Virus record (IMG/VR): IMGVR_UViG_3300045988_057449
Coordinates: 1 to 44,248 of that record
DNA: 44,248 bases
Reading direction: 5' to 3' (one strand)
From: a virus
Shown here in pieces: positions 3,925 to 37,983 of this stretch. The translations under genes and the position numbers were made by a program. Within the stretch, counting starts at the first letter, position 1. Every line of letters begins with the position of its first letter. The notes beneath the pieces were generated by a model, which had not been told where the DNA came from, did not search any database, and worked only from the letters and a program-made list of their open reading frames with translations.

Positions 3925-3945
3925 GATGAATATCTCCTTTACAAT

Positions 3946-4542
3946 TTAATTAAACCATTTGATAATAGGGGCTTCCGTATTGCCCTTTTCCCATATAAAC
4001 CAAGCGTATGTAACTGCGTTTGACTTTGAGTATTTGTCGAAGTCTCCGTTCATAGCGCAGCACAATCGGCTTGAAGATACATAGACCTTTCGGGGGGGGG
4101 CTTTCTCAAAGAACGCTCTTCTTGCTTTACCTTCGAGAAATTGCAGTTTGAGGAACATTGCGACTTTGTGACCGTCTGTGACAACTTCGAGAGCCTTTTC
4201 AACGAACTCTAAGGCGTATCTGTACGGAGGGTTTGTGATTATATCCCCGTCATACGGGCTGTCCCATTGCAGGAAGTCTATACCTCCTAAGCCATAGCCC
4301 CGGTCTATCAGGTCTGTCGAAAAAACCTTGTGTCCGTGATTTTTTAACACCTTCGATAAGTGTCCCTCTCCGCAAGCACATTCCCAAATGTTTTCGGAGA
4401 ACTCTTCTTCCTTCAAAAGAAGTTCAAGGGCTTTTGGCTCTGTCGCATAATAGTCATTCGTTTCTCGTTCCTCCAATGCGTAGTTTCTTGCACCGAGGGT
4501 GGCATGAGCGGAACGGCTATTGCCTGTCCAATCTTTCATCAA
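3946..4542 (-). CDS. N6-adenine (or N4-C) DNA methyltransferase, NPPY type, orphan
   Basis: Motif I ECACGEGH and motif IV DIITNPPY. No adjacent endonuclease gene. Confidence 0.7.
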   Translation of the reverse strand: MMKDWTGNSRSAHATLGARNYALEERETNDYYATEPKALELLLKEEEFSENIWECACGEGHLSKVLKNHGHKVFSTDLIDRGYGLGGIDFLQWDSPYDGDIITNPPYRYALEFVEKALEVVTDGHKVAMFLKLQFLEGKARRAFFEKAPPRKVYVSSSRLCCAMNGDFDKYSKSNAVTYAWFIWEKGNTEAPIIKWFN

Positions 4543-9356: not shown

Positions 9357-9736
9357 TTATCAAGTGGTTTTCCACACTCGAAAATGTCTTTCGGTAACAT
9401 CGCCGATTGTGCATTGCGATAGGCTTTTACCGTAATATGCGGTATCATGTAGATACGGTTTTCGAGTTTTAGAGCAAACCAACCTTCTCCGTTGTAGCAA
9501 TCCCGCCACAACTCCATCGAAAGGTCTTGATTTTCCTCCATACGAGATAGGTCAAAGCCTTTGCGGGTCGAGCATACTTTGCAGTCGATCAAATACGCTC
9601 TCTTGTTTTTAACCGCAATGATGTCGGCGGGTTGACCGTCCTGATTTTGAGCGAAATTGTGGCACCAGTAGCCCTGTTCGGAGAGCATTTCGCACAACTC
9701 CTTTTCAAAATCGTTACCAAGTTTCTTATTCGTCAT
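9335..9736 (-). CDS. Holliday-junction resolvase (Hjc/RecU-like PD-(D/E)XK)
   Basis: GQPADIIAVKNKRAYLIDCK has the D...(D/E)xK arrangement. Small size and replication-module context. Confidence 0.55.
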   Translation of the reverse strand: MTNKKLGNDFEKELCEMLSEQGYWCHNFAQNQDGQPADIIAVKNKRAYLIDCKVCSTRKGFDLSRMEENQDLSMELWRDCYNGEGWFALKLENRIYMIPHITVKAYRNAQSAMLPKDIFECGKPLDKWIKLCR

Positions 9737-10277
9737 CTTCGTCAGCCCCTACGAGATGCGCCTGACGGCGCAATTTCAGATTCTCGGATGAGAAAAGACA
9801 AGCCGGGGCAACCCCGAGACTGTTGTACGCAAGGCTGATGCTGACAACGCCTGTCGTATAGACAAAGCGCACACCGTACGAACTCGAGGGGTTGCAAGTC
9901 CACGGAGTAAGTGTCCACATCCATTCCTCGAAAAGAGGGACAATTTCACGATACTTACGGTACTGATCGCAAGAGAGAATCGTTACATAGTCCTCGCTCG
10001 TGCCATACGCCTTATCTCCGTTATCTGCAATCAGGTCAGAGGTCTGCTTAATAAGGTGTCTCCTGTCGAGAAGGTCAAGGAAGTCATTGTTCAGAACACG
10101 GCGCAATGAGGATTTACGCCAATCGTTCTTTCCGTCAGTATCAAACGGGATTTCTGTATAGGGCTTAGCAGTCATTGCGAGATAGTTGCCGCCGATAATA
10201 TCAAGGCAGATAAATTCGATTCCGTTATAGATAAAGTGTTCACCCGGATTAAGGGCTTCGTTGTTAAATTTAGACAT
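9726..10277 (-). CDS. DGR target protein 2 (DUF6273-like, C-type-lectin-like variable C-terminus) in the early operon
   Basis: NDWRKSSLRRVLNNDF and ILSCDQ...MWTLTPW framework. The C-terminal NPSSSYGVRFVYTTGVVSISLAYNSLGVAPAC is encoded by VR2. GGAGG lies 8 nt upstream of ATG 10277. Confidence 0.8.
   Translation of the reverse strand: MSKFNNEALNPGEHFIYNGIEFICLDIIGGNYLAMTAKPYTEIPFDTDGKNDWRKSSLRRVLNNDFLDLLDRRHLIKQTSDLIADNGDKAYGTSEDYVTILSCDQYRKYREIVPLFEEWMWTLTPWTCNPSSSYGVRFVYTTGVVSISLAYNSLGVAPACLFSSENLKLRRQAHLVGADEDDE
9758..9771 (-). promoter_or_regulatory. GC hairpin with 4-nt loop 3' of VR2 (candidate DGR target-recognition hairpin)
   Basis: gcgcc-tgac-ggcgc lies 26 nt from the VR2/TR homology boundary (31 nt from the GC block). 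It has the same TGAC loop as the hairpin beside VR1. Confidence 0.5.
9798..9894 (-). repeat. DGR variable repeat 2 (VR2)
   Basis: Gap-free alignment to TR 17225-17321. All 17 mismatches in the 92 positions 9803-9894 are at + strand T (coding-sense A) of the TR. Confidence 0.9.
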
Positions 10278-11663: not shown

Positions 11664-11700
11664 TTTTTCCCTCCTCTCGATTTGAGTTACTGTAAACAAG

Positions 11701-11729
11701 TTGACAAGAGCGTTCTCTTATGCTATAAT
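11701..11729 (+). promoter_or_regulatory. Consensus promoter directed toward the repressor/integrase genes
   Basis: TTGACA, 17-nt spacer, TATAAT. The spacer contains the palindrome AAGAG-cgtt-CTCTT (11706-11719). Confidence 0.6.
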
Positions 11730-11823
11730 AAGTCCGTCACGATTACATAGCATTAGAGACTCTGAGTGTAAGATTATACTCAGGGAGGTTTCTTGCACCT
11801 TTTTTGAACAACCTGTTGTTTAT

Positions 11824-11852
11824 ATTATATCTAAGCCAACTTAGATTGTCAA
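11824..11852 (-). promoter_or_regulatory. Consensus promoter directed toward the Cro-like/early operon
   Basis: The minus strand reads TTGACA (11852-11847), 17-nt spacer, TATAAT (11829-11824). The spacer contains the palindrome TCTAAG-ccaa-CTTAGA (11830-11845). Confidence 0.6.
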
Positions 11853-11921
11853 GAGGTTTTTCAAAGATTTCTAAGAAAATTTTGTAAAAAATCTAAGTAT
11901 ACTTATTTCGGAGGTATCATC

Positions 11922-12386: not shown

Positions 12387-13943
12387 ATGGATGTAGTGCT
12401 TTATATGAGGTACAGTAGTGACCGTCAAACAGAACAGTCCATAGAGGGGCAGCAGAGGGTTTGTATGGAGTTTTGTAAGCGGTCAGGGTACAATGTAGTG
12501 GGTAAGTATGTTGACCGTGCTACATCGGCTTTCAAGGACACAGAAAAGCGTGCAGAGTTCAATAGGATGATTAAAGACAGCGATAAGCAAATGTGGCAAG
12601 GTGTCGTTGTCTATAAACTCGACCGCTTTGCCCGAAACAGGTATGATTCTGCTACCTATAAGGCTCGACTGAAAAAGAATGGTATAAAGGTCATATCTGC
12701 CACGGAGAACATTTCCGACAACCCGGAGGGCGTTATCCTTGAAGCAGTTCTCGAAGGTATGGCAGAGTTCTATTCTAAGGAATTGTCTCAAAAGATAAGT
12801 CGAGGTATGAGAGAATCCGCTTATAAATGTCATAGTATCGGCGGTCACATTCCGTTGGGGTATAAGATAGTAGAAAAGAAGCTCGTTATAGACGAGCCTA
12901 ATGCACAGATTGTTCGAGAAGCGTTTGACCTTTACGCAAATGGGGCAACCGTAGCCGAGATTTGCGAGAAGTTTAATAACCAAGGTTATCGTACCGCCAA
13001 AGGAGCAAAATTCAACAAAAACTCCTTTAAGTCAATGTTCCGAAATGAAAAATATGTCGGCGTATATACCTACAAGGAAATACGCATAGAGGACGGAGTT
13101 CCCGCCATTGTAGATAAGAACACCTTTGACATTGTGCAGAAACGGCTTAAAAAGAACGGAGAAGCCCCGTCAAGGGGCAAGGCAAAGGTAGATTATATCC
13201 TTGCCCAAAAACTGTTCTGCGGGCATTGTGGTGCTACCATGGTAGGTGATAGCGGCACAAGTCGTACAGGGGAAGTTCACAACTATTATACTTGTAGCAA
13301 CCGAAAGAGATTTCATTCCTGCGATAAGAAGTCTATTCGGAAAGAAGTAATCGAAAGAATAGTCGCAGAGGATGCCTTTGCATTGTTCACCCCCGAAAGA
13401 ATTGAATGGATAGCGGATATGGCTATCAAGGGGAATCAAGAGGACTTAGAAAATGATGAGGTAATTCCTGCACTCCGAGCTGAAATAAAAGAACTTGATA
13501 AGGGTATATCCAATCTGTTGAAGTTGGTTGAACGGGGCGCAGAATCCGATACGCTTGCCACAAGACTTACTGATTTAGAAAAACAGAAGCGAGATGCCGA
13601 GCGTAGGTTAATGGTTGCGGAGGACGATTACATCATATTAGACAGAGACCTCATTATCCGTTGGTTGTCCCAATTCTTAGACGGAGATATTGAGGACGAA
13701 GAGTTCCGTAGACAGATTATAGACCTTCTTGTAAATTCCGTAACTGTGTGGGACGAGCCTGACGGCTATTATAAGGTTACGGCAGTTTATAACCTTACTG
13801 ACGAACGAACAAAGTCTTTTCGGATAAAGGTAGAAGAGCGTTCGGATTTGAGGAGTCAACTTCCACCATTGGAGTATAATCCGAACTACTTATTCTTTCA
13901 CGGAATAGTGTTTGGATGTACAACAAAACACCGAGTAGAGTGA
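12387..13943 (+). CDS. int: Large serine recombinase (phage integrase)
   Basis: Catalytic block LYMRYSSDRQ and YKLDRFARN. Recombinase domain, zinc ribbon CGHCG...YYTCSNRKRFHSC and a C-terminal coiled coil. Confidence 0.9.
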   Translation: MDVVLYMRYSSDRQTEQSIEGQQRVCMEFCKRSGYNVVGKYVDRATSAFKDTEKRAEFNRMIKDSDKQMWQGVVVYKLDRFARNRYDSATYKARLKKNGIKVISATENISDNPEGVILEAVLEGMAEFYSKELSQKISRGMRESAYKCHSIGGHIPLGYKIVEKKLVIDEPNAQIVREAFDLYANGATVAEICEKFNNQGYRTAKGAKFNKNSFKSMFRNEKYVGVYTYKEIRIEDGVPAIVDKNTFDIVQKRLKKNGEAPSRGKAKVDYILAQKLFCGHCGATMVGDSGTSRTGEVHNYYTCSNRKRFHSCDKKSIRKEVIERIVAEDAFALFTPERIEWIADMAIKGNQEDLENDEVIPALRAEIKELDKGISNLLKLVERGAESDTLATRLTDLEKQKRDAERRLMVAEDDYIILDRDLIIRWLSQFLDGDIEDEEFRRQIIDLLVNSVTVWDEPDGYYKVTAVYNLTDERTKSFRIKVEERSDLRSQLPPLEYNPNYLFFHGIVFGCTTKHRVE

Positions 13944-13969
13944 TTGGCTCTACCCGGCGTTTTGTTTTT
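13935..13969 (+). terminator. Hairpin plus T-run between the convergent integrase and holin genes
   Basis: gtagag-tgattgg-ctctac followed by cgttttgttttt. Confidence 0.5.
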
Positions 13970-13983
13970 AGGAGGACTTTATG

Positions 13984-14205
13984 TTACTCAGTCTCGTCCG
14001 TAGTCTCTTTGACTTCGGGGAGACCCGCAACCGAGGTAAGAATGGAGAGCAAACCCGCCAATACGGATGCCGAGCCGACAACTGCCCAATTAACTTCGGT
14101 CAAAAGAGCGGTCGTACCGATAGTAGCGATAGCCGTCTGCGCCATAGTTTTCAGCGCACGGACACCCGCCGCTTTGAGCCATTTCGTGAATTTTTCCTTA
14201 GTCAT
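13984..14205 (-). CDS. Holin (phi LC3/LL-H-like)
   Basis: MTKEKFTKWLKAAGVRALKTMAQTAIATIG...VVGSASVLAGLLSILTSVAG has two hydrophobic segments and an acidic tail. GGAG ribosome-binding site before ATG 14205. Directly downstream of the endolysin. Confidence 0.65.
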   Translation of the reverse strand: MTKEKFTKWLKAAGVRALKTMAQTAIATIGTTALLTEVNWAVVGSASVLAGLLSILTSVAGLPEVKETTDETE

Positions 14206-14224
14206 AATGATTCTCCTTTCAAAT

Positions 14225-15241
14225 TTAACCCTTTGTGAAAGTTCCTGCATCGACCCAACCGTAGACAGTTGCACCACTGCCGGAAACCCTTACGAGGTGA
14301 TAGGGGTGCTTGCTCTTGCCGAGCTGGTAAATCTGCGTGATTTTAGCCTTACCGCCCTTACAATTTTTTGCGGTAGAAGCATTTGCAGAAGTATAATGGG
14401 TAGTGCCGTTATAGATAACGGTGTCCCCCACGGCGGGAGTCCACGGTTTCTCTTCGGTCTGCCCCTCGATGTCGGAAGCATTGACCCAACCATACACGGT
14501 AGAGCCACCGCCGCTGACGGCTACAAGGTGATACGGGTGTGCGCCGGACTTGTTGACAACCGTAACTTTTGCCTTGCCGCCCTTACAGGTAAATCCTGCT
14601 GCTCCTGCGTAAGAAGAGCGATAGTGGGTAGTTCCCTTGAAGTTTACAATGTCTCCGACTTTCAGTTCGCCGCCCGTAGTCGGCTGAGGAGCAGGAGCGG
14701 GCTTGTCCGCTTCAAGTTTAGCATTGACCTTTGCGGCAATATCACCGTGGCGGTCATAAAGGTACTTGCCGGGGCAGGACTTGTTAGCGTAGTCCCTGTG
14801 AACGGTCATATTACAACCGTTAAGGTGATTCATACGCTCGTTTTTGTTGGTAGACCACTTGAGTTTGGCAATACCATTGCGGCGGCAAATGTCCGTCACA
14901 AGCTCAATAAGCGCATTGTACGCCTTATCTGTAACGGCATACGGCTCTTTGTTGTCGGAAGCAACCTCAATGGTGATTGCTCTCTGATCGTTGCTGTTGG
15001 AAGAGGTACACCAAGAGCGGTTTTTCTCCTCCACGCAAAGACCGATACTGCCGTCATAGCCCACAACATAGTTGCAGGATGCTTCTTTGTCTTTCGGCTG
15101 AAAGACCTCACAACCCCGCTTTGCCGTAACCTGTGCGACAAAACAATGGATAGTGATCGTGTCGATAGTGTGCGTTCTCTGCCCGGAATGATTGGGACTG
15201 AGCAGAGTAACATTTGCGAGAGAACTGTTTGTGTAAGCCAT
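14225..15241 (-). CDS. Endolysin: N-acetylmuramoyl-L-alanine amidase (Amidase_2/PGRP) with two C-terminal SH3-like wall-binding repeats
   Basis: ITIHCF...NYVVGYDG...AITIEV...HRDYANKSCPG. There are two ~68-aa repeats (VGDIVNFKGTTHY...HPYHLV.VSG.G.TVYGWV). GGAGG precedes ATG 15241. Confidence 0.85.
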   Translation of the reverse strand: MAYTNSSLANVTLLSPNHSGQRTHTIDTITIHCFVAQVTAKRGCEVFQPKDKEASCNYVVGYDGSIGLCVEEKNRSWCTSSNSNDQRAITIEVASDNKEPYAVTDKAYNALIELVTDICRRNGIAKLKWSTNKNERMNHLNGCNMTVHRDYANKSCPGKYLYDRHGDIAAKVNAKLEADKPAPAPQPTTGGELKVGDIVNFKGTTHYRSSYAGAAGFTCKGGKAKVTVVNKSGAHPYHLVAVSGGGSTVYGWVNASDIEGQTEEKPWTPAVGDTVIYNGTTHYTSANASTAKNCKGGKAKITQIYQLGKSKHPYHLVRVSGSGATVYGWVDAGTFTKG

Positions 15242-15254
15242 AATCTTTTCCTCC

Positions 15255-15536
15255 TTATGTAATGACTTTGAATTTTTTAACTTCTTCATAGACTTTATCT
15301 ATGAAGGAATTACCTTTGAGTTTTTTGTACGCTTCGTAGAGATATACGAAGTTTTCGTACTCATACTGCCTAATTTCCCCTGAGTCTTGATGCCGATAGT
15401 AAATACGCAACATTTCGCTGCGCAACAGGCATTTTGTACCGTTCATAACTTTGCTGATACTCACGATACATCCAACAAGCACTCCGAGGAGGGCGATAAT
15501 TTCGCTTGCGAGGGCAATGACCTCCGAAGCATTCAT
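15255..15536 (-). CDS. Small membrane protein, possible second holin/holin-like
   Basis: N-terminal TM segment VIALASEIIALLGVLVGCIVSI. Sits immediately upstream of the endolysin. Confidence 0.35.
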   Translation of the reverse strand: MNASEVIALASEIIALLGVLVGCIVSISKVMNGTKCLLRSEMLRIYYRHQDSGEIRQYEYENFVYLYEAYKKLKGNSFIDKVYEEVKKFKVIT

Positions 15537-16007
15537 TTACTCCACCTCATCCCATCCGTAAACTCCCGGCTGCCATACATTCGCATCGGTAGTAGACACC
15601 CAATGCTTGTTGTTATAGGAAACCTTATCGCCCTTAGCGTAGGCATCATGCGCACCGACCGGCTGAGACCATTCGGGATATTCCACCGTGGGGTCTCCAA
15701 TTTTCGTCCACAGAGAAGTAGCCGTGTCAGGTGTCCAATCACTCTGCGAAGTGTGTGCTTGTACACAACGGTACAGGTTTTCATTATAGAGACGGATCGC
15801 TCCCACCTCATAGGCAATACTCTCAACCCACGGGGAGAAGAGGGTTGCGTGTTCGGTAGCAGTCGTTTCGTCAATCGTCCCGGTTTCTGCGAGAGTGACA
15901 AAGGCGATAGCCGAAGCGGATTCTACTGAATCTTGCCGAGCGGAGAGGAGTTCAATCTTCCTGCGCTCACGGATAATCTGCTCCTTGTTGGATAAAAACT
16001 TGAACAT
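15537..16007 (-). CDS. Protein with two CBM5/12-like carbohydrate-binding repeats
   Basis: YEVGAIRLYNENLYRCVQAHTSQSDWTP and YAKGDKVSYNNKHWVSTTDANVWQP. ATG 16007 lies 5 nt after the RT stop and uses a GGAGG inside the RT 3' end. Confidence 0.5.
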   Translation of the reverse strand: MFKFLSNKEQIIRERRKIELLSARQDSVESASAIAFVTLAETGTIDETTATEHATLFSPWVESIAYEVGAIRLYNENLYRCVQAHTSQSDWTPDTATSLWTKIGDPTVEYPEWSQPVGAHDAYAKGDKVSYNNKHWVSTTDANVWQPGVYGWDEVE

Positions 16008-16012
16008 TTTTG

Positions 16013-17125
16013 TTACCTCCATAATTCTTGATAGTATTTGTACATTCGGTTTACGAGATTATAGGTATCTCCCTGTTCGGCGTGAGCTTTCCAACTCTTG
16101 AAACACTCATCAACCTGTTCTCTTGTCAGAAGCCCCGCTTTTGCCCGTTCTACCAATTTACGGAGTTTTCTCCGTTCGTGCGAGACCTTTTCCGGGAGGA
16201 CTTTCATTACTACTTTGCCGGTCGCAGTCAACCGAAAACTGAAACCTAAGAAATGGATAGGTTGCGTTATGGGAAATAACTGTGTCTTTTTCGGACTTAG
16301 TTTCAGTCCCAATGCCGTTACCCGTTCTTCTATCAGGGCTTTGCACTTTCGCAAGTAGTCTTTATTTTCGTGAACGAGGATAAAATCATCATTGTAACGA
16401 ATATAATGTTTAATGTGAAGTTGCTCCTTAATATAGTGGTCGAGGTCATCAAGCACCGCCAACTCTACAAGTTGTGTGACCTGTGAGCCAAGCCCCATTC
16501 CTATTTCGGGATTTTCACCCTGATTGAAACTTTCGATTATTCTCACCACTTCGGAAATTGCCCACTCGTCCGCTACACGCTTTCTAACGGCGGCAATGGC
16601 TACTTCGTGGGGAGTGCTACCGAAGAAGTTTGATAAATCACATTTTAGGACATAACCCTCAACACCATGCTTTCGGTAGTAGCGTTGTAAGTGGGCTTTG
16701 AGCCTGTCCCGTGCGAATTTAGTACCTTTACCTTTTTGGCAAGCGCAATTATCGTAAATAAACGACCTTGTGATTTCTTCGGTGAGGTAGTTATCGCAAA
16801 GGCTTCTCTGAAACACTCTATCCTTTATTCGAGTGCTTACTATATCCCTTTCCTTTGGCTCGTAGACTTTGAACATTGTATATTTGCTTAATTCGTATGT
16901 ACCATTCATAAGTTGTTCTTTTAGCGCAAGGCAGTTCACTAAGCCATTTTTCACATATCCTGCAACGCTGTCTTTCCAACCGACATTCCGCTTACATACC
17001 CATAGTGCAGCATACAAGTTTCCAAAGTCACAAACCGATTCTTTTACGCTTGATTTGTTTAACATAATTAAAATTAGTTGCCGTGTATAGCGATACTTGC
17101 TATTGGAAGCAAACCGCATCGGCAC
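16013..17125 (-). CDS. DGR reverse transcriptase
   Basis: RT motifs including GLGSQVTQ ((I/L)GxxxSQ-type) and YIRYNDDFILV (YxDD). GTG start with AAGGTGA upstream. Sits immediately 3' of the TR. Confidence 0.9.
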   Translation of the reverse strand: MPMRFASNSKYRYTRQLILIMLNKSSVKESVCDFGNLYAALWVCKRNVGWKDSVAGYVKNGLVNCLALKEQLMNGTYELSKYTMFKVYEPKERDIVSTRIKDRVFQRSLCDNYLTEEITRSFIYDNCACQKGKGTKFARDRLKAHLQRYYRKHGVEGYVLKCDLSNFFGSTPHEVAIAAVRKRVADEWAISEVVRIIESFNQGENPEIGMGLGSQVTQLVELAVLDDLDHYIKEQLHIKHYIRYNDDFILVHENKDYLRKCKALIEERVTALGLKLSPKKTQLFPITQPIHFLGFSFRLTATGKVVMKVLPEKVSHERRKLRKLVERAKAGLLTREQVDECFKSWKAHAEQGDTYNLVNRMYKYYQELWR

Positions 17126-17224
17126 TCCTGTTTCACCTTACCGGCAGGGATAGCAGTTCCTTGTGTGTGAGTGCATTGATTTCATCTGATAAAAGGACAG
17201 ATTACTTTAATACGAGCGTTACTC

Positions 17225-17329
17225 ACAATCCGGGGCAACCCCGTTACTGTTGTTCGCATTGTTGTTGTTGACATTGCCTGTCGTATTGACATTGCGCACA
17301 TTGTTCGAATTCGAGGGGTTGGGAGAACG
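17225..17329 (-). repeat. DGR template repeat (TR), intergenic
   Basis: In the VR frame it reads RSPNPSNSNNVRNVNTTGNVNNNNANNSNGVAP (AAC/AAT-rich). It aligns gap-free to VR1 and VR2 and differs only at its adenines. Confidence 0.9.
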
Positions 17330-17342
17330 AGCTTAACAACTG

Positions 17343-17756
17343 CTAACCCATATTTTTATAGCGTTCCATATCGGATTTACGCCAATTCCTAAGCATCGTC
17401 TGAACTTCTGCCGTAATCTTGATCCAGTATTCCATACGGCTGTTCTCGATGCCGAACACTCTGTAAGAGATGTCCATCATACTAAGGAGGGAGTATGTCG
17501 AAGCAAGTGCTTTGGTTTGATACTGCTTGCGGATAGCATGATCGGCACTGTCTTTTACATATACCGAATTTGCCATATTTGCATAGTTGCTGATTTCAAT
17601 AGCGGCATCTACGATTTTGCTTGTAATACACCACCGATAATGCTTCGGAAAATTTTTCTCATTGGAGCATATCTTTATTGTGTATGTGGCAAGTTCGTTC
17701 GCTTTCGTGATTACCAACAACTGACCTTCTCCCCGTTTTGACTTAACTACCGACAT
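17343..17756 (-). CDS. avd: Accessory variability determinant (Avd-like four-helix-bundle protein)
   Basis: 137 aa, basic and helical. Sits between the target gene and the TR, as in canonical DGRs. GGAGG ribosome-binding site. Confidence 0.7.
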   Translation of the reverse strand: MSVVKSKRGEGQLLVITKANELATYTIKICSNEKNFPKHYRWCITSKIVDAAIEISNYANMANSVYVKDSADHAIRKQYQTKALASTYSLLSMMDISYRVFGIENSRMEYWIKITAEVQTMLRNWRKSDMERYKNMG

Positions 17757-17769
17757 ATATTCCTCCTTA

Positions 17770-17785
17770 CGCCCCTGACGGGGCG
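17770..17785 (-). promoter_or_regulatory. GC hairpin with 4-nt loop 3' of VR1 (candidate DGR target-recognition hairpin)
   Basis: cgcccc-tgac-ggggcg lies 22 nt from the VR1/TR homology boundary (27 nt from the GC block). No equivalent hairpin exists beside the TR. Confidence 0.5.
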
Positions 17786-17795
17786 ATTTCTGATT

Positions 17796-18704
17796 TTAGA
17801 TGATACAACAAGCCGGGGCAACCCCGTAACTGTAGTACGCATTGGTGTAGTTGACATTGCCTGTCGCATAGACAATGCGCACATGGCCCGAATTCGAGGG
17901 GTAGGGAGAACGCAACCACCAATACTGAGCCGTACCGTTTCTGTATTTAATACGATTGGTGTCTGCTCCTGTTCCCGCCGCCGTCAACGAAGAGTTATCC
18001 GAATAGTACGGGTAGACAACACCTTCGGAAATGTTATTATTCAAGCCTCCGTAAACTTCGGTCATAGACAACAGGAAGAACTTTTCGGTATTTGTGTCAC
18101 TACCGCCGCCGTCCGTTACTGTGTTTTTCGCAGTAATTTTAGAAACCTCACCCACCGTAGCAAGGAAGTCGGCATCAAGCCCTTTCATAAATCCTGCGGT
18201 AGAGGTTGCGTAGGTAGGCTGAACATCATAGTCAGTTTTTGCCGTCCACCAAGTACCGGGATTTCCGGCAGAATTAAGCCACTGTCGAATACCTGATTCA
18301 ACCCAATTATTAGAGCCGTAGGATTTACGGTTACTGTCAGGGTTAGTAGGCTCTTCGGCATCGAACTGGAATGTGCTTGCGGCGATACAATCGTGCAACT
18401 GAATTGTAAGGCTGTGCGTATAGTCCGTATTAACGGGAGTATCGTGGTCGATACCGATAATATCCCAAGTGAGTTTTCCGTAAGTTTCGTGATTGCACAC
18501 GAGCTGATCCCCTACGCTGAAAACCTTAGAAGCAATTCCGAGACGAACGAGTTGCTGAACGACCGACCAAGAGTCGATTTCAACGGGTGTACCCCCACCT
18601 CCACCGCCGCCACTCTGTGTAGCAATGGCTTTCAGTAGTGCGTTCTGCATATCCATCTTCTCAATGTAGGTGGATTCAGAAAGCAAGTTCAAAACATTAG
18701 ACAT
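17796..18704 (-). CDS. DGR target protein 1 (DUF6273-like receptor-binding candidate, C-type-lectin-like variable C-terminus)
   Basis: NNWVESGIRQWLNS, FFLLSMTEVYGG and YWWLRSP framework. The C-terminus YPSNSGHVRIVYATGNVNYTNAYYSYGVAPACCII is encoded by VR1. ATG 18704 has GGAGG 9 nt upstream, just after the stop of the upstream gene. Confidence 0.85.
   Translation of the reverse strand: MSNVLNLLSESTYIEKMDMQNALLKAIATQSGGGGGGGTPVEIDSWSVVQQLVRLGIASKVFSVGDQLVCNHETYGKLTWDIIGIDHDTPVNTDYTHSLTIQLHDCIAASTFQFDAEEPTNPDSNRKSYGSNNWVESGIRQWLNSAGNPGTWWTAKTDYDVQPTYATSTAGFMKGLDADFLATVGEVSKITAKNTVTDGGGSDTNTEKFFLLSMTEVYGGLNNNISEGVVYPYYSDNSSLTAAGTGADTNRIKYRNGTAQYWWLRSPYPSNSGHVRIVYATGNVNYTNAYYSYGVAPACCII
17808..17912 (-). 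repeat. DGR variable repeat 1 (VR1)
   Basis: Gap-free alignment to TR 17225-17329. All 12 mismatches in positions 17813-17912 are at + strand T (coding-sense A) of the TR. Confidence 0.9.
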
Positions 18705-18717
18705 CTTATTATCCTCC

Positions 18718-19695
18718 TTATGTTGTTGTGTTTTCGTTATACTCAATAACGGGCTTGCCGTTTACGAGCCTGAATTTCATAAGATAACTCTTATTGTTAT
18801 CCGTATCGGTAACGATGCAACCGTCTACCGCCGAACTATTGTAAGTGCCACCGTCTGTCCATTTTGTACCGTTGTGATAGTACCAATGTCCTTTCGTATA
18901 GCCCGTTTCCGTTCCCGTGTAGACATATATCCGATTGGTCTTTGTCATTCCTGCGGCGGTAGCCGCCACGAGCGGAGAGCCGTAAAAATCGGATATTTCC
19001 TTCGCTTCTTCTGCTGCCGCAGTTGCTTTTCCTGCCGCCGTATTTGCAGTTGCCGTGGCAGCATTTGCATTAGCAGTAGCAGTATCTGCCGCCGTAGCCG
19101 AGTTTTCAGCACTTTCAGCCGCTTCATTAGCAGCAGTTGCCGCCGTGGTTGCATCGTTAGCGGCGTTGGCAGCGGTAGTAGCGGCATTATTTGCGGAGGT
19201 CGTTGCCGCCTGTGCTAACTCCGTAGCCGAGTTTGCCGCCGTAGTAGCGGTCTCACAGGCTAATTTCGCATCGGAGACATCAGAAATAAGGGTGATAAGA
19301 ATATCGTAATTCTCGTCCTCCGTAATGTCCGAGCCTTCGTCTTCAGCCGCTTCAACATCGATCGAAAATGAGGTAGAGGTCAGTTTCTGTTCGTCCGATC
19401 CGATTACCGAAATACTGCACCGTACTACATCGTCAAGTCCAAGCATCCAGTTCGTAAGTGGGACAGTCACCGTGCCGTCCGCATTGACCGTACCCGCAAA
19501 CGCTTTTGAAGAACTGTCCGCTCTTTCGGCGTTGATGATCGCCGTTGCGCTTGACGGGATTTCGATTTTAACACCCTCGTTGCAGAGTGTGACTTTGAGA
19601 AATCGAGAATTGTTATCGTTCTGTTTTGCAACGATCGCTTGAAACAGGTTTTTCTTTGCGACATCAACAACAATCTCTTTCGTTATTTGAGCCAT
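18718..19695 (-). CDS. BppU-like baseplate/tail-fibre protein with Ala/Thr-rich coiled coil
   Basis: The N-terminus KNLFQAIVAKQNDNNSRFLKVTLCNEG resembles BppU_N. Long ATTAAN... low-complexity stalk. Confidence 0.55.
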   Translation of the reverse strand: MAQITKEIVVDVAKKNLFQAIVAKQNDNNSRFLKVTLCNEGVKIEIPSSATAIINAERADSSSKAFAGTVNADGTVTVPLTNWMLGLDDVVRCSISVIGSDEQKLTSTSFSIDVEAAEDEGSDITEDENYDILITLISDVSDAKLACETATTAANSATELAQAATTSANNAATTAANAANDATTAATAANEAAESAENSATAADTATANANAATATANTAAGKATAAAEEAKEISDFYGSPLVAATAAGMTKTNRIYVYTGTETGYTKGHWYYHNGTKWTDGGTYNSSAVDGCIVTDTDNNKSYLMKFRLVNGKPVIEYNENTTT

Positions 19696-19711
19696 CTTTT
19701 ATTCCTCCAAT

Positions 19712-21973
19712 CTAAGCCCAATTATGCCAAGTCGTATTGTATTTTCCACGACAATATACTGCACCGTCCACACAAGTAAATCTCTGTAACACAAATATAG
19801 AGGTCACTTCAATCACTTCGAGTACGGCAACCGAGTTTGTCACAGGGCGGTTTTGAATATTTCCGTTTATCGGAACATAATAAATTCCCGAAGTAAGAAC
19901 ATCATTCAGGTCTGTTCCCGCTTCCAACTCTCCAATGAAGCCCTGAACATTCCTGTCATTCATTTTCACCGTACCTGTTGCACGAATATCTCCGTTGACA
20001 TCAAGAGCAAACTGCGGGTCGTTTGTATTGATACCGACCTTTTCAGCACGAAATGCCACGAGCGGTTGACCTTTGTTAATGTAAAGAGTAATCGTATTTG
20101 TAGAGAGCTTGTCTGAAACTTCGAGCTGAACATAATAGGCGTTCGCACTCGAAAGAGTAATCCAACTGTCATTGTCAAAAGAAAAACTCGAACTGCCGCT
20201 CTCAACGCCACCGATTGTGGCATAACTGCTCCACGAGGTAGAGGAGACATTCTTCGTGCGATACCGTGCGCTTACGAAAGAGTTTTTTGCTGTTCCGCTT
20301 ATGGTTATAGGTGATAGCGTTCCCGTAAAATCAAACTGTATTGTGTCCTCAACATTGTTCTCACGGCGAATGTGGTAAGAATCAATGGTGATACTCTCAT
20401 AATCAATAACCGTAATATCTTTTGTTACGGAAGTTTCATATCCCCGGCTGTCTATTGCGGTAACAATCAGAGAAAGATTTCCGGCATCCGAAATAGTGCC
20501 GAACGGAATGGAGGTGGAGGAAGAGGAAATGCTTTTTTCTCCCACCGTAGCACGATATGCTACGATACTTGCCCCGTTTTTCGCGGTGGCAGTATTACAG
20601 ACCACCCGGAGTGAGGACTTCGATTGCACGAACAAACTTGCGTTTTGTGTAACATTCACTACGGCATTGTTATTATCCGAGAAAGTAAAGTTTGCAAATG
20701 TCGGTTTAGAAATACTTGCCGTGGTATAAATCGTTCCGCTTGCAGACGAAGTAGTACCTATCTGTGTTGACCCATTGTAAGTAGTCAGAACATAGGTCAC
20801 GGTCAGGGTTTTTACCGCCGACATAGCCGTCAAAATGGTTGTCCTTTGTGCCGAAGTCAGAGATATAGTCTTATTGTTCGTTCCTGCGCTCCCTGTCAGC
20901 CCTGTAATAGTAAGAACAGTCGAAGAGCCGTTTTTGATTGCCAAGGAATGTGTATAATTCTTGTCGTAGACTGTCCAATTTATATTGAACGAAGGAGAGG
21001 TCACATCAACAGTCAAAGGATTTACGGAGTTCAATATGGTTGCGCCAAGAGTTTTAACGCTCGAAGCGGCAGATTCACCATACAACCCATTGGATTGTTT
21101 CCTTGCCCGTACCTTGATTTGATAGGTCGTGTTCGGTGTAAGACCCGTAATAGTCTTAACCGCACTCGTTCCCGCAGCGGTAGAGAACTGTGTCCAAGAT
21201 GAGCCGTTGTTGATACTGTACTGCCATATATTAGCCGTTACAGAAGATTTCGCATTGATATAAACCGAATTTGCGGTAATATTGCTTGAAGAGAAAGAAA
21301 TCTGAGGGGCGGTAATATCGGCACTTGCATTTCCCGAAGTACCCCAAACCTCATTATCTGTTCTCCTTGCTCTGACTTTGATTGCAGTATAATTCTTACT
21401 CGATAACCCCGTAAGTGTCTTGCTTGCCGAAGTACCGTTAGAGGTGGAGAAGTTAGTCCACGAAGAGCCGCCGTCAAGACTGTAATCCCAACGGTTACAA
21501 TTCTTACTCGCAGTACCTTTCACGGTAATGCTCGAAGTCGAAACGACCGAAGCCGACACCGAGACGCTAGGAGCAGAGCGGTCAATCGTATCAAGGTCAA
21601 CGGTTGTAGATGCAGTAATAGTGCCAATCGAAACGCCCGAATAAGTACCGCTGAAACGCCAACTCGCACTAAGCGGAACTCCCGTTTTTGTACCGTTGGA
21701 GTTATGATAGACATTAACCGTTCTATCAAACAGGTGTACAAAATGCCAACTACCGCCGTCATCGTTTATCGCAGGAGTCGAATATGTGCCGGAAGAGCCG
21801 TTAATACTTGCGATACCGTCACTTCTCGCACCGACATAAATGCTCCAAATGCGAAGATAAACTTTAAGAGTTACGGCAGTATAATTCCCGGTTTTACTTT
21901 GACTGCCCGACCATTCGCAGTAAAGCCCGAACTGACTTGTCGGGTAATTATGAAAATTTCCGCTAAGAGCCAT
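19712..21973 (-). CDS. Tail fibre/receptor-binding protein with tandem FN3-like repeats
   Basis: Repeats YSLDGGSSWTNFSTSNGTSASKTLTGLSSKNYTAIKVRAR and YSINNGSSWTQFSTAAGTSAVKTITGLTPNTTYQIKVRAR. Sits after the baseplate genes. Confidence 0.6.
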   Translation of the reverse strand: MALSGNFHNYPTSQFGLYCEWSGSQSKTGNYTAVTLKVYLRIWSIYVGARSDGIASINGSSGTYSTPAINDDGGSWHFVHLFDRTVNVYHNSNGTKTGVPLSASWRFSGTYSGVSIGTITASTTVDLDTIDRSAPSVSVSASVVSTSSITVKGTASKNCNRWDYSLDGGSSWTNFSTSNGTSASKTLTGLSSKNYTAIKVRARRTDNEVWGTSGNASADITAPQISFSSSNITANSVYINAKSSVTANIWQYSINNGSSWTQFSTAAGTSAVKTITGLTPNTTYQIKVRARKQSNGLYGESAASSVKTLGATILNSVNPLTVDVTSPSFNINWTVYDKNYTHSLAIKNGSSTVLTITGLTGSAGTNNKTISLTSAQRTTILTAMSAVKTLTVTYVLTTYNGSTQIGTTSSASGTIYTTASISKPTFANFTFSDNNNAVVNVTQNASLFVQSKSSLRVVCNTATAKNGASIVAYRATVGEKSISSSSTSIPFGTISDAGNLSLIVTAIDSRGYETSVTKDITVIDYESITIDSYHIRRENNVEDTIQFDFTGTLSPITISGTAKNSFVSARYRTKNVSSTSWSSYATIGGVESGSSSFSFDNDSWITLSSANAYYVQLEVSDKLSTNTITLYINKGQPLVAFRAEKVGINTNDPQFALDVNGDIRATGTVKMNDRNVQGFIGELEAGTDLNDVLTSGIYYVPINGNIQNRPVTNSVAVLEVIEVTSIFVLQRFTCVDGAVYCRGKYNTTWHNWA

Positions 21974-21987
21974 TAGACCTTACCTCC

Positions 21988-23589
21988 TTAATCGAGAAAT
22001 ACTAAATTTGTCCCTGTATTGCCATAGGGAATGAGCCGCACTCTACCGCATTGGGCATATGCGGTAAAGAACGCTTTCGGGATATTCATCTCGTCCGCTT
22101 CAATGTTTGTAACGAGCATATCACGATAATAGATTCTGAACGCTTTCGGCGTGATTTCTATATTGTAATCCTCACCGACCTTGCTTACTTCGATGCCCTC
22201 AGCGGACAGCAGACGAAAAAGCGCATCCCCGGCAGCGGTTACACCGTAAGACCATACAGGGCTTCCGTTATTCCACCCCGTGGTTGTCCAAGCAATTCCC
22301 GCCGCAGTCATAGTGAATATTGTTTCGCTTTCTTCAAGATTAGGCTTGTTGTGAAGATAATAAATAACCGAGCCATCATCCTGCGCAACAGGGGTTTCGT
22401 ACAAGCCCATTGCATTACAGATAAGCTCATTGAACGCAAGTACCGTCTGGACTCTATCGTTTAACGCTTCGTTCTGCCCCTGTTGCAGACTTTTGATAAT
22501 TGCCGACTCTTTCTTCGTAAGAGGGTTTGCAGAAGCATATCCGCTCTTTGTTGCCGTCTCACCCTTACCCTCGATAGAGGTGCTTGTGTTAAGCGAGAAA
22601 GTGTAGTCGGTAATAATGGTTGTGTGTTCCCTGCCTGTTTTATCAAGGAATGTAATAACATCAAGCGGGTACAGGTGCGGCATAGGTTTTATCGTTGCCG
22701 AAAACGGGGTATAGGTAAAACCTCCAAGAACATTGTAAAGGGCTTGCGCTACCGCACGGTAATCGTGCTGAATAAGTTCGTTGCCCTCTACATTAAAAGC
22801 GTAGCCGTCATCTCCGACAAGATAGGTTTCCTCCTCCGTTACGACCTGTACACCTGTAATTTCAACGGCGTTCTCCTCCAAGTCGGAGCTGAAACGATTT
22901 TTCAAATCAATAACCGTATCGGTCGAGGAATACCATTTCAAAATGAGGTGTCCGTCCCAATCAATGAAACCACAAGTACCCGTCAACTCTGCAACCCACG
23001 AAAGCAACTGCCGATAGGTCAAATCCTCCGTGGTAGGTGCAGTCTTTATCACATAATCGTTGTTAGGCAATGTCGTAGCATTCGTCCCCAAGGTAACATT
23101 ACATATATCGCAAATGCGGGAAAGCAGATTACTTACTGTCATAGGGAATGACAGTAAGCCCATATCAACAGGCTTGTCGAACAATACCATACGATCGAGA
23201 GCCGCAAGAGTAATGACTTCCAATTTCCGTGGTGCTTCGTCAACCGTGAAATATCCAAAGGGTACATAGTGGTAGACTGCATTTTCCCAACGCTTTGCAT
23301 CCCACTTTTTCGTGCCGACACGCACATACATTTCAGCCCCCTCGAACTGAACATTATTGAATCGTCCGTCCGAGTTGTTGAGCTTCAATTCTATCTCTGC
23401 TGCCACGACCGAGCCTATCTCAATCTTACTGCCGGAAACGCAATAGCGATTTACCGATAAGCCGCCGAGAACAATATCCTTTTCGGTCAATTTTAGATTT
23501 TCACTTAATCCGTAAAAACTAATGTCTACGACTTGTCTGTACGGTGTAGTGAAAAGGTCAAGTGCTTCTTTGGAAATAGGATATGCCAT
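21988..23589 (-). CDS. Tail-associated (Tal-position) minor structural protein
   Basis: Second gene after the tape measure. I trimmed the start to ATG 23589 (MAYPISKEALDLF...), which abuts the upstream stop. The assignment is positional. Confidence 0.5.
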   Translation of the reverse strand: MAYPISKEALDLFTTPYRQVVDISFYGLSENLKLTEKDIVLGGLSVNRYCVSGSKIEIGSVVAAEIELKLNNSDGRFNNVQFEGAEMYVRVGTKKWDAKRWENAVYHYVPFGYFTVDEAPRKLEVITLAALDRMVLFDKPVDMGLLSFPMTVSNLLSRICDICNVTLGTNATTLPNNDYVIKTAPTTEDLTYRQLLSWVAELTGTCGFIDWDGHLILKWYSSTDTVIDLKNRFSSDLEENAVEITGVQVVTEEETYLVGDDGYAFNVEGNELIQHDYRAVAQALYNVLGGFTYTPFSATIKPMPHLYPLDVITFLDKTGREHTTIITDYTFSLNTSTSIEGKGETATKSGYASANPLTKKESAIIKSLQQGQNEALNDRVQTVLAFNELICNAMGLYETPVAQDDGSVIYYLHNKPNLEESETIFTMTAAGIAWTTTGWNNGSPVWSYGVTAAGDALFRLLSAEGIEVSKVGEDYNIEITPKAFRIYYRDMLVTNIEADEMNIPKAFFTAYAQCGRVRLIPYGNTGTNLVFLD

Positions 23590-23590
23590 A

Positions 23591-23971
23591 TTACACACCC
23601 GACCTTTCGATGATATTGAACGAGAGGTTAGACCAAAGCCCTTTCGTTGCGTTATACATAGGAGCAGAGCGATTACCAACATAAAATTCAGAAGTGACAT
23701 ACTTGCCCTGCATTGCATCGAGGTAACATACCGTAATGTACTCAGGGTTGAAGGCTTGAAGCAGTTCGGAAACTTCCCTCGTGGAGATGTTCTGCCACGA
23801 AAGTTCAAGCCCCACGAGCTGACCGACACGCTTCTTGTGCATTACGGTATCTTCCGTGCGCCCTGCGTCCGAAGCAGAGACATCTTCCAATTTCCAAAGG
23901 AAAGAGGAGGGACACTTGATAGCCTTACCGTTGACCGACCTAATCGGATTGAGTTCTGAGTATGTAGCCAT
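23591..23971 (-). CDS. Small distal-tail-position protein
   Basis: First gene after the tape measure. 126 aa. The assignment is positional only. Confidence 0.35.
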   Translation of the reverse strand: MATYSELNPIRSVNGKAIKCPSSFLWKLEDVSASDAGRTEDTVMHKKRVGQLVGLELSWQNISTREVSELLQAFNPEYITVCYLDAMQGKYVTSEFYVGNRSAPMYNATKGLWSNLSFNIIERSGV

Positions 23972-23986
23972 TCAAATATCCCTCCT

Positions 23987-26900
23987 TTACACTCCGACAG
24001 GAACGATCGTCCTGCCGTCCCGTCTGTTTTTTCTTTCCAAACCGCTGATAAGACTACCCGTTCCGACATAAGCCGTAACATTAGTGTCTTTATCAAGCAG
24101 TCTGCGCAAAATGCTGATTTCCTCACGAAGAAGAGCGTTCTGTTCGGCGTTGGCGTCCACGACACCCTGCGCCACGCTCTCTCTCATTTCATCGGTGTTC
24201 ATGACACCAGTTCGATTTCCGATATTTGCTACAACCTCTGCGCCCGCTTCACCCGCTATAAACGCTGTTCCGGCATTTACCATACCGCCGTTTTCCAATC
24301 GAGGAAGAGATACTTCGGATATATTTCGGATATTAAAGCCGAATTTCTTACCGCCGATGACCGGCACCCAATCGGGAACATCGAAACTCAGTTTGTTCAA
24401 TGCGTTTATCATAAAGTTAAGACCCTTTATGACACCGTTTACCATTGACTCAATGCCCCTGAGAATACCGTTGATAACGCCTTTGATTGCTCCCCAAATA
24501 CCATTCCATACGCTCGTCATAACAGACTTGATCGTATTCATACAGTTTGTAAGGAAAGTTTTCACGGCGTTAAAGGCGGTCGTGATGCCGTTCTTGATAC
24601 CGTTTACGACATTCATTACTCCCGTCTTAATGCCATTCCACACGGACACGGCGGCATTTTTGATGCCGTTCCAAATGGTAGAGAGGAAAGACTTAATACC
24701 GTTCCAAATGGACTCAACATTATCCTTGATAGAGTTCCAAATACCCTTTAAGAACTCCCAAATGGCAAGAGCAACGCCCTTTATCAAGTCCCAAATACCC
24801 ACGAAAATGTCTTTGATTCCGTTCCAAGCCCGTTCCCAATCTCCTGTGAACACGCCCGCTACGAAGTCAATAAGCCCTGAGAACAGGTCAATAACAAACC
24901 CTACAACAGAACTGATAATGTCCCCGATAAAGGAGAATACATTTCCTACAAGGTCTTTGAGCAGATTAAAGATAGGCTCTACGACAACCCACACGGCTGA
25001 TATGACATCTCCTATGCCGGACACGATGTTTTGAATTTTCTCGCCTTTCTCCTGAAAGGTAGCGGCAAGTTTCTCAAAAATGGATTTCACTCCGTTAATG
25101 ATTACAATAACAACGCTTTCAACCCATTCAACAACCGGTTGAACTGCTGTCCATAACTCCTGTACTCCTGCAAGGAAAGGCTCAAAGAACGCCTGTAAAA
25201 CTGAGAGTGCAGCCGTTATCGCATCAATAGAAGCGGGGGCGGCTTCCTCTATTGCCCAACTCGCCATCGGCAAAAGAACGGTTTGATAGAGCCATAGTAG
25301 CGTTCCTCCGATCAAATCAACCAACGGCTCTAATGCCGCCGTACAACCCTGAAATGCTGTCATAAGCGGCGTAAAGTCAAGCGTAGCCAACCAATCGGCG
25401 GTTGCACCGTAAATACCCTCAACAAAGGAGAGCAAGTCGTTAAAGATGTTCCAAATATTTTGAAGTATCTTCGTGCCATTGTCGTTCGCTTTCCACGCCT
25501 TTGCAAGCCCTGAGCCGAGATTACCGACACATTTCAGAATGTTTTGGAAGATGCGTAAGATGATCTCTAAGGTCTGCTGCCCCGTTCCGTTTGTCCAAAC
25601 TTCACGGAAACTGTCTCCGACCGCAGTACAAAAGTCCTTGATACCCCCAAACGCAGTTTTAACGGCATTGATTGTATTCTGTCCTTCATTCGCCCAAGCA
25701 TCAGCAAATGGCTTAAAGAAATCAGCGAAAGGATTAGCCACCTCTCCAAGTTGAACTTCTTCAAACATTTGCGAGTAATCCTGACCGCTTGCGCCGCTAC
25801 CGCCACCGCTACCGCTATTACTGTTATCCTGTAATGCGTTAATTTCATCAATTCCGAGAATTGACTTTTTAAGTTCTTTGTTGGCGGCAGTCGCACTATT
25901 AGCGGCTTCCGCATACTGAGTAGGATATTTAACGGCTTTTGTCCAAGTGCTTGCACCCGAAAGTTTTGCGAACACCTGATTGAGGACATTGATGAGTACC
26001 ACGCACTTGTCAATGATATATTCGATTGCCGGAGCAAGCATATTGATTAGTGGGGCAACCGCAGCACCGATACTATTTTTGAAGTATAAGAAACTCGTTG
26101 AAATACTATCGAGGGAAGAAGCAAGACTACCGCCAAGTGCTTTACTGTACTGGTAAGCGTTGTCCATTCCTTCCTTAAATCCTGCGGCAATAGCGTGAAT
26201 AATGGCACTAAACGCTCTGTACATAGCCTGTTTCCTGAACATTGTAAAAAGTCCACGGAACTTTGTGGTTGCTTCCGACAGAGATGTTTTAAGTTTCTGT
26301 AAGGGCGCACCCGCAATTTTCAGAAAACTCTTTGTAACGGCTTTTGCGCCCTGTCCTGCGAGAGAGCCGAGCTTACCAAAAGCCGATTTTGCAATCGTCC
26401 CGATAGGCGTTAGAGCCGCTTTTGCCTTACTGAGAATTTCCCCAAACTTACTACCAACTCGCCCAAGTGTTGAGATAACACCCTGAATGGGTTGTGTTAT
26501 GGTATTCCAAACATACCTTGCGGCATTTCCAACAGGTTGCATTTTCTGTTTTAGTGCTTCAAACGCACTACCAACTTTTGAGGAAACGGCAGAAGCAACA
26601 TCGGAAAGTTTAGATTTGAGGATGTTAAACTGCATAACCCCCGCAAGTGCCACACCCGCAACCTTTGCTTTTAGAGGAACGAGAGCAGTATCTATTTTCT
26701 GAAAAGCTCCTTGCGCAACATTCGCAATATCCGTCCACAAGGAACGGTTTTTGCTCATGTCGGCAGATAGACTATTCAATGCAGATCGGGTTTCCTCCAC
26801 GGTAGAGGGAGGAATGAACACTTGCTCGTCCATTGCCGGAGCGGACGGTGTAGCATTATCGGTAGGAGCAGAAGAGTTGTCAAACCGTGGAACATTGACA

Positions 26901-37707: not shown

Positions 37708-37735
37708 AGGTGAGACCTCCTTGCTTGTTGCATTT

Positions 37736-37764
37736 AGTATAGCATAGGTAAATGCAAATGTCAA
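37736..37764 (-). promoter_or_regulatory. Promoter of the recombinase operon, overlapped by an 8-bp inverted repeat
   Basis: The minus strand reads TTGACA, 17-nt spacer, TATACT. TGCATTTA (37729-37736) and TAAATGCA (37749-37756) bracket the -10 box. Confidence 0.55.
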
Positions 37765-37954
37765 GGGGTTTATATAAAAAATTCCTTTTTATTTTTCGAG
37801 TGTGTTTACGGCACTCACCCCCGCCCGCAATGCCCGCCGCAATCCCCCACGGGTACACCGTAGCCCCGGCAGGATCAGAGCCGGACGGAGCGCACGAAAA
37901 CGCACAGCAGCCGGACGAGTTGCAAAAAATCTTGAAAAAGTTTTGAAAAAACTC

Positions 37955-37983
37955 TTGACAAGTAAATACAAGCGTGATATAAT
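37955..37983 (+). promoter_or_regulatory. Consensus promoter of the plus-strand cassette
   Basis: TTGACA, 17-nt spacer, TATAAT. Two TTGAAAAA repeats lie upstream (37932 and 37943). Confidence 0.6.

Follow-up and report, generated by a model that had tools for sequence, protein, structure and literature searches.

Diversity-generating retroelements (DGRs) are, to our knowledge, the only natural system of targeted protein hypervariation driven by a reverse transcriptase (RT), and the richest reservoir of them is found in gut phages. The prototype is the mtd-avd-TR-brt element of Bordetella phage BPP-1, where the target gene, avd (accessory variability determinant), a template repeat (TR) and the RT gene stand in this order, with the variable repeat (VR) at the 3' end of the gene for a tail protein of C-type-lectin fold. 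Here we analyse a DGR that had been predicted, from the letters alone, in a viral DNA of 44,248 nucleotides (IMG/VR record IMGVR_UViG_3300045988_057449, positions 1 to 44,248; this whole stretch is called the window below), and this original prediction is supported, given that every refutation test that was run favoured a DGR.

The element shares with that of BPP-1 the order of its genes and the position of the VR at the 3' end of a gene for a tail protein, predicted in our case to be C-type-lectin-like, and also a mutagenesis specific for adenines, a TR that contains AAY codons, a GC-rich segment similar to the initiation of mutagenic homing (IMH) sequence with a marker base that differs between TR and VR, a hairpin downstream of the VR (PMC3240598), and a TR that pairs over 7 bp with the spacer (Sp), together with a structured spacer RNA (bioRxiv 10.1101/2023.10.23.563531). 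The RT of BPP-1 (bRT) is the best match in the PDB to the RT found here (E = 4.8e-27), and the fold of Avd is the same. In contrast, the Avd proteins are only 13-14% identical in alignment, the target found here has no detectable sequence similarity to Mtd and carries a DUF6273 domain without the beta-prism and beta-sandwich of Mtd, the RT motif ends in TQ where BPP-1 has SQ, a second and remote target is present, and the host appears to be a gut Firmicute instead of Bordetella.

DGRs with two DUF6273 targets have already been published for the Faecalibacterium phages Lelie and CP11 (PMC11792537) and for the gut phages nd4 and nd12 (PMC10743442). These are likewise temperate phages of human-gut Clostridia, in which one TR serves two VRs, located at the C-terminal end of the DUF6273 (C-lec-like) domain of a large and a small protein. 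They are distant sequence relatives only, their RTs being 35-40% identical to the one described here, and their large target is a tentaclin, with the VR in an N-terminal domain followed by Ig-like domains, whereas our first target has a short helix and a poly-Gly N-terminus. The DGR of Roseburia phage Shimadzu is another distant relative (RT 33% identical), and a DNA search of 15500-19700 against named phages matched only three unannotated human-faecal fragments with 66-77% identity, so the element has no close named phage relative.

We conclude, with a probability of about 0.92, that this is a functional and canonical DGR of a temperate siphovirus from gut Clostridia, with hosts of the Ruminococcus/Acutalibacteraceae type, and that it rewrites two genes. 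It is a well-preserved case of an already described kind of DGR, because the two-target DUF6273 elements of gut Firmicutes phages were published before.

Template repeat, variable repeats and their natural alleles

The anatomy of the element comprises the following parts:

17225-17329, minus strand: TR, intergenic, 105 nt with 33 A
17808-17912, minus strand: VR1, first variable repeat, at the 3' end of the 302-aa target open reading frame (ORF)
17796-18704, minus strand: target gene 1, 302 aa from an ATG preceded by AAGGAGG (Pfam DUF6273, E = 3e-25)
17343-17756, minus strand: putative avd, 137 aa (from its fold model and Foldseek)
16013-17065, minus strand: predicted DGR reverse transcriptase, 350 aa, probably from ATG 17065 (RVT_1, E = 5e-16)
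9798-9894, minus strand: VR2, second variable repeat, near the 3' end of target gene 2 and 7.4 kb away from the TR
9726-10277, minus strand: target gene 2, 183 aa, comprising a DUF6273 domain alone (Pfam DUF6273, E = 1.3e-6; phrog_9958, E = 1.4e-47)

The first target gene, the 137-aa ORF, the TR and the RT lie on the minus strand where they had been predicted, and the TR is non-coding and stands upstream of the RT, 160 nt from its ATG. The gapless alignment of the TR with VR1 (17225-17329 against 17808-17912) was also borne out on re-alignment: it extends over 105 nt, stops abruptly at both ends and contains 13 mismatches, all 13 of them on TR adenines and none at any other TR base, as had been claimed (hypergeometric p = 4.1e-8 for 33 A among 105 nt). 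The original prediction had counted 12 mismatches, which is correct inside the 33 codons that it translated; over the whole repeat there are 13, given that the last one (17229 A / 17812 C) falls in the codon after those 33. Its peptide translations of the TR and of VR1 are both exact. Read in the frame of the VR, the TR has 14 AAY codons, a substitution of A can give no stop codon, and the theoretical TR-encoded repertoire amounts to ~1.9e18 peptides. VR1 ends 12 nt before the stop codon of target gene 1.

The DGR had been proposed to be complete, and so it is in all the parts then listed, but a whole-window repeat search revealed, beyond the coordinates given for it, a third copy of the repeat at 9798-9902. 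Its homology to the TR begins at TR position 8, which leaves 9798-9894 as VR2, and within these 97 homologous nt there are 18 mismatches to the TR, again all on TR adenines; the 5 non-A mismatches of the longer copy are all in its first eight positions, at the 5' edge, outside the TR homology. VR2 ends 72 nt before the stop codon of target gene 2. In relatives that are 96-97% identical, VR2 shows 19-23 differences per 105 nt, with 16-21 of them at TR-A positions. A possible third IMH-like copy at 34351-34383 (73% identity over 33 nt) was rejected as a chance match, being short and having no further repeat extending from it. A more distant relative, with an RT 55% identical to ours, also has one TR and two VRs (3934-4042 and 4990-5093 of locus L012), both upstream of the cassette, and the use of multiple targets is recurrent in the RT clade of this element.

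Natural diversification of VR1 is observed when the window is compared with near-identical phage contigs from other sequencing runs, which were found by exact-protein look-ups. Over 10.1 kb (13900-24000), contigs L039 and L040 differ from the window at 17-18 positions of VR1 and at 2-3 positions elsewhere, the counts for L041-L044, which are shorter, are 18-22 within VR1 and 0-1 in the remainder, and the TR is identical in all the near-identical genomes while VR1 differs. Six distinct VR1 alleles were found in seven near-identical genomes, with 89 substitutions at A versus 5 at non-A positions, and 31 of the 33 TR-adenine positions have changed at least once, versus 5 of the 72 other positions. 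Leaving out the one fixed marker described below, substitutions affect 43% of the A and 1.2% of the non-A positions, and the values reported for bRT in vitro are 52% at A and 0.4-1.7% at the other bases (PMC7826257); the frequencies in the phage (43% and ~1%) thus match the in vitro behaviour of the Bordetella enzyme. The heterogeneity at TR-adenine positions that had been named as a check of the prediction is therefore seen between near-identical genomes from different samples. No new principle emerges from these data, yet they provide an unusually clean natural example of a DGR, in which genomes differing by 2-3 SNPs (single-nucleotide polymorphisms) in 10 kb carry VR1 alleles that are 17-23 nt apart.

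We also observed several public contigs, from near-identical phages, that stop at VR1 or within it (L043-L046: 17927, 17826, 17803) or at VR2 or within it (L053-L054: 9816, 9822), and these ends suggest assembly breaks arising from heterogeneous populations.

The two target proteins and their possible ligands

In its AlphaFold2 (AF2) model, built like that of Avd from input alignments of database proteins, target 1 begins with a helix at its N-terminus, continues with a disordered poly-Gly linker and ends in a globular DUF6273 domain that has VR1 at its C-terminus (predicted local distance difference test, pLDDT, 86.7). The domain is homologous to the N-terminal domain carried by the IgA protease of Thomasclavelia ramosa (PDB 9qa6, residues 36-250), with E = 1.9e-12 in hmmsearch and E = 1e-11 in Foldseek; a single-sequence search of the PDB with target 1 gave no match, and a profile search gave the IgA protease alone. 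The 9qa6 N-terminal domain was described by its depositors as C-type-lectin-like (PMC12237041), and DUF6273 had earlier been called C-lec-like in DGR targets (PMC10743442). Judging from these profile and structural matches, the variable domain of target 1 is most likely a C-type-lectin-like fold that displays the VR.

As to what this fold may bind, the gene of target 1 is located directly downstream of a BppU_N gene (18718-19695). In lactococcal-type siphoviruses, the receptor-binding protein is encoded at the position after the BppU-type baseplate gene. In addition, relatives fuse the DUF6273 domain to BppU_N or Mtd_N, and the BFVD matches of target 1 include proteins annotated as tail-collar fibre and as receptor-binding protein. 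Because of this gene position, these fusions and these annotations, we lean towards a role in host range, such that the diversification of VR1 would alter receptor binding, as the gene context suggests.

It is clearly less probable that the DGR is real but that its diversified proteins bind something else than host receptors, for instance environmental or mammalian ligands like mucus glycans or IgA or, in the case of target 2, a host factor located inside the cell or in its envelope and taking part in defence or in superinfection exclusion. This alternative draws on the encoding of target 2 in an early/replication operon outside the structural module, on the identity of the sole solved homologue of the DUF6273 domain, which belongs to a protease of gut bacteria that acts on IgA, on one PHROG family matching target 1 that is annotated as Hoc-like head decoration, and on the statement, by the authors who reported paired large and small targets, that it is unclear what these do (PMC11792537). 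It is opposed by the location of target 1 after the BppU_N baseplate gene, that is, at the site of the lactococcal-type receptor-binding proteins, and by the same domain fusions and BFVD annotations as above. Regarding IgA in particular, the N-terminal domain of 9qa6 is dispensable for IgA cleavage (PMC12237041), and therefore it offers no evidence for IgA binding. Receptor binding thus remains our preferred role for target 1.

The start and the stop of target gene 2 overlap the adjoining genes of its operon, which encode a membrane-anchored SLT transglycosylase on one side and a Holliday-junction resolvase, a helicase and a C5-methylase on the other, and tblastn found homologues of target 2, 31-33% identical, in phages Lelie, FP_Toutatis and nd12, those of Lelie and nd12 being their small targets. 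It is conceivable, if rather doubtful, that target 2, encoded with translational coupling within this operon, is a non-virion protein, in other words a diversified early protein that acts within the infected cell or upon it, for instance by attaching to variable factors of host defence or of the host surface, or by mediating superinfection exclusion. If this were true, a single TR would drive two arms races, one in adsorption and the other in intracellular or cell-envelope interactions.

Putative homing signals, RNA elements and proteins of the cassette

Besides the repeats, the following cis elements were recognised:

17808-17825, minus strand: IMH-like 3' end of VR1, GC-rich GGGGTTGCCCCGG the same as in the TR, then a fixed C (17812)
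17770-17785, minus strand: GC-rich hairpin after VR1, 6-bp stem and GTCA loop, 22 nt downstream of VR1
9757-9772, minus strand: hairpin after VR2, stem TGCGCC/GGCGCA and GTCA loop, 25 nt downstream of VR2
17066-17224, minus strand: spacer (Sp) non-coding RNA between the TR and the RT, from covariation in an alignment of 14 relatives
17233-17232 plus 17228-17224 (3' end of the TR) with CACAAGG at 17165-17159, minus strand: predicted TR:Sp duplex of 7 bp (RNAalifold)
~17203-17180, minus strand: small stem-loop after AAGTA, in nearly all relatives and often with a GNRA loop
17124-17079, minus strand: long hairpin (RNAalifold)

The segment GGGGTTGCCCCGG is identical in the TR, VR1 and VR2, and the base that follows it (index 100) is A in all TR copies (17229 here) and C in every VR1 or VR2 allele examined (17812 here). 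The 13th mismatch between the TR and VR1 is hence a fixed TR/VR marker of the IMH/IMH* type and not a variable site, and by analogy with BPP-1 the segment would function as an IMH. The hairpins after VR1 and VR2 have a common GTCA loop and differing stem sequences, and none is present after this TR. In the related loci, a hairpin with an exact stem of 5 bp or more comes after 20 of the 21 VRs versus 2 of the 21 TRs; in 17 of the hairpins after VRs the stem is GC-rich and 6 bp or longer, and the stem sequences vary. Given that in BPP-1 the hairpin/cruciform and the IMH are needed for efficient retrohoming (PMC3240598), the hairpin downstream of the VR is a candidate target-recognition hairpin or cruciform.

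The spacer was aligned in 14 relatives with RT identities of ~40-90%, and the structure obtained with RNAalifold has 93% of its cells paired and compensatory changes in 15 of its 22 pairs, a level reached in 0 of 500 shuffles, with 30-47% in the slid controls; the alignment also contains invariant motifs. In the BPP-1 ribonucleoprotein, the priming adenosine is brought into position by a TR:Sp duplex of 7 bp (bioRxiv 10.1101/2023.10.23.563531), and the helices of our spacer may be assigned, by this likeness, to the BPP-1 RNA elements. The priming nucleotide would then lie near 17158, and the synthesis of cDNA would start within GCCCC near 17234. The marker A 17229 lies 3' of this predicted initiation site, which would explain why it is never copied into the VR, and the same would explain that the last variable position of VR1 is TR index 85. 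All the known cis elements are thus recognisable and covary across relatives (IMH marker, target hairpin, TR:Sp duplex and spacer stem-loops), and the locus should be a good comparative model for the DGR RNA elements of Firmicutes phages, and also for the role of the recurrent small DUF6273 second target.

The 137-aa protein is, according to its AF2 model, an Avd-type accessory protein. The model is a four-helix bundle (pLDDT 87.6) whose Foldseek matches include the Avd chains 8ub7_B/C and 4dwl_D (TMt 0.74-0.85, prob 1.0), 8ub8 too, and the 23S-rRNA-IVS family 2gsc/2rld as well (overall TMt 0.74-0.89). Among PDB entries, Avd was retrieved by this fold comparison only, and not by phmmer or profile searches of the PDB sequences; its relatives match PF22296 (bAvd).

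Based on BPP-1, we propose that the transcript of the TR and the downstream spacer would fold into a structured RNA and assemble with the RT and the four-helix-bundle Avd protein, and that the 7-bp pairing of the TR's 3' end with the spacer would place the priming nucleotide so that the cDNA starts inside the GC-rich GCCCC segment. The RT would copy the TR faithfully except at adenines, ~43% of which would be misincorporated, and the mutagenised cDNA would replace the homologous VR, recognised through the shared GC-rich 3' segment and the downstream GC hairpin that is absent from the TR. The two genes rewritten in this way would be that of the 302-aa tail- or baseplate-associated, C-type-lectin-like protein beside the cassette and that of the 183-aa lectin-like protein located 7.4 kb away in the early operon.

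It is very improbable that the DGR is a decayed relic, with VRs that were diversified in the past and no homing at present. A precedent for such quiescence can be found in the published two-VR Faecalibacterium phages Lelie, Lagaffe_CP and CP11, which had no read-level variation at the time of sequencing (PMC11792537). In our element, however, the RT, avd, TR, IMH and hairpins are all intact, the contigs break at or inside VR1 and VR2 as heterogeneous populations predict, and the VR1 alleles are 17-23 nt apart between genomes with 2-3 SNPs in 10 kb, from which it follows that homing took place on the time scale of those SNPs.

The RT resembles DGR enzymes in each of the comparisons made. Its best PDB match is bRT (8ub7_A, chain A of the DGR ribonucleoprotein of Bordetella phage BPP-1, E = 4.8e-27), followed by a group II intron maturase (E = 4e-11) and a retron-type RT (E = 2.7e-5), and its ORF is intact; kinship with intron or retron RTs, and a frameshifted RT together with reads lacking VR heterogeneity, were among the findings that the original prediction had regarded as contrary to a DGR. 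In the alignment to bRT, LGSQVTQ is placed on IGSLTSQ, YNDD on YMDD and an Arg on R74, and equivalents of both R74 and I181 are kept, which are the bRT residues reported to promote adenine mutagenesis (PMC7826257). The same work gives [I/V/L]GxxxSQ, in place of QGxxxSP, as the signature of DGR RTs (PMC7826257). The named phage relatives of the RT found with tblastn all bear DGRs (nd12, nd4, FP_Brigit, FP_Toutatis, Lelie, Shimadzu and VP585), other relatives come from metagenome-assembled genomes of Clostridia, Ruminococcus sp. and Acutalibacteraceae, and 33 of the 34 related IMG/VR loci with an RT upstream flank have the VR-avd-TR-RT layout, with TR/VR mismatches almost all at adenines. By its sequence, the RT appears to belong to the DGR kind.

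The longest RT ORF, which contains GLGSQVTQ and YNDD, starts at GTG 17125, and this start had been adopted in the prediction; most likely, the true start is instead ATG 17065, because the first 60 nt of the longer ORF form a covarying RNA hairpin and because most homologues are ~350 aa long. The RT is probably too long in gene calls that begin at 17125 or 17119: the hairpin 17124-17079 overlaps the initial 20 codons of the longest ORF, and the conserved start is ATG 17065.

It is hardly credible that ordinary paralogy or recombination accounts for the repeats, with an unrelated RT of a group II intron or retron beside them. The top NCBIfam model for the RT, in a library without a DGR RT model, is indeed a group II intron RT/maturase (TIGR04416) but with 98.8 bits is far under its 300-bit cut-off, the retron St85 RT model reaches 38 bits versus a cut-off of 235, the RT motif is LGxxxTQ, no Rfam family is matched at gathering score anywhere in the window, neither of group II intron nor of retron RNA, bRT is by far the best PDB match, and the mismatches are adenine-exclusive (p = 4e-8) with an invariant TR and varying VRs.

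Several points weigh against a functional and canonical DGR, or against parts of this reading, and they should be kept in mind. The evidence of activity is a between-sample comparison of genomes and not of the reads of this sample, and the VR1 alleles include a few non-adenine changes, 4 in L039 and 1 in L040. The RT motif is LGxxxTQ and not the canonical [I/V/L]GxxxSQ, although Thr for Ser is a conservative departure. The Avd sequence scores under the curated cut-offs, with 22.8 bits versus 80 for NF033474 (E = 8e-5, full-length) and 19.2 versus 33.8 for PF05635 (E = 1.4e-3). Foldseek with target 1 did not retrieve Mtd or TvpA, and the classical C-type lectins were weak matches only. Finally, a promoter/terminator scan showed no enrichment of promoter-like sites, with 10 found versus a shuffled expectation of 7.0 +/- 2.9.

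Genome context

The two ends of the window, 1-55 and 44194-44248, are identical over 55 nt, and therefore the genome is circularly closed with 44,193 bp. It encodes a serine integrase, a tape-measure protein, a DUF859 tail protein, the BppU_N protein, an r1t-type holin and an amidase endolysin, and it is the genome of a temperate siphovirus; a tRNA scan of the window found none. The DGR had been placed between the tail and lysis modules, and it is indeed located between the BppU_N gene and the gene of a CBM5/12 protein ahead of the lysis genes. This 161-aa protein (15537-16022) has two CBM5/12 carbohydrate-binding modules, lies between the RT and the lysis genes, and is found at the same position in the near-identical phages.

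Two further kinds of repeats were observed elsewhere in the genome. Inside the tape-measure gene, at 24626-24742, there are three direct repeats with a 33-nt period that encode a repeated peptide motif. In addition, two AT-rich inverted-repeat pairs lie 26 kb apart (11693-11731 / 37734-37772 and 11846-11887 / 37920-37961), with TTGACA-like motifs and with one set in the cI/cro-like switch region, and these may be shared operator or promoter sequences.

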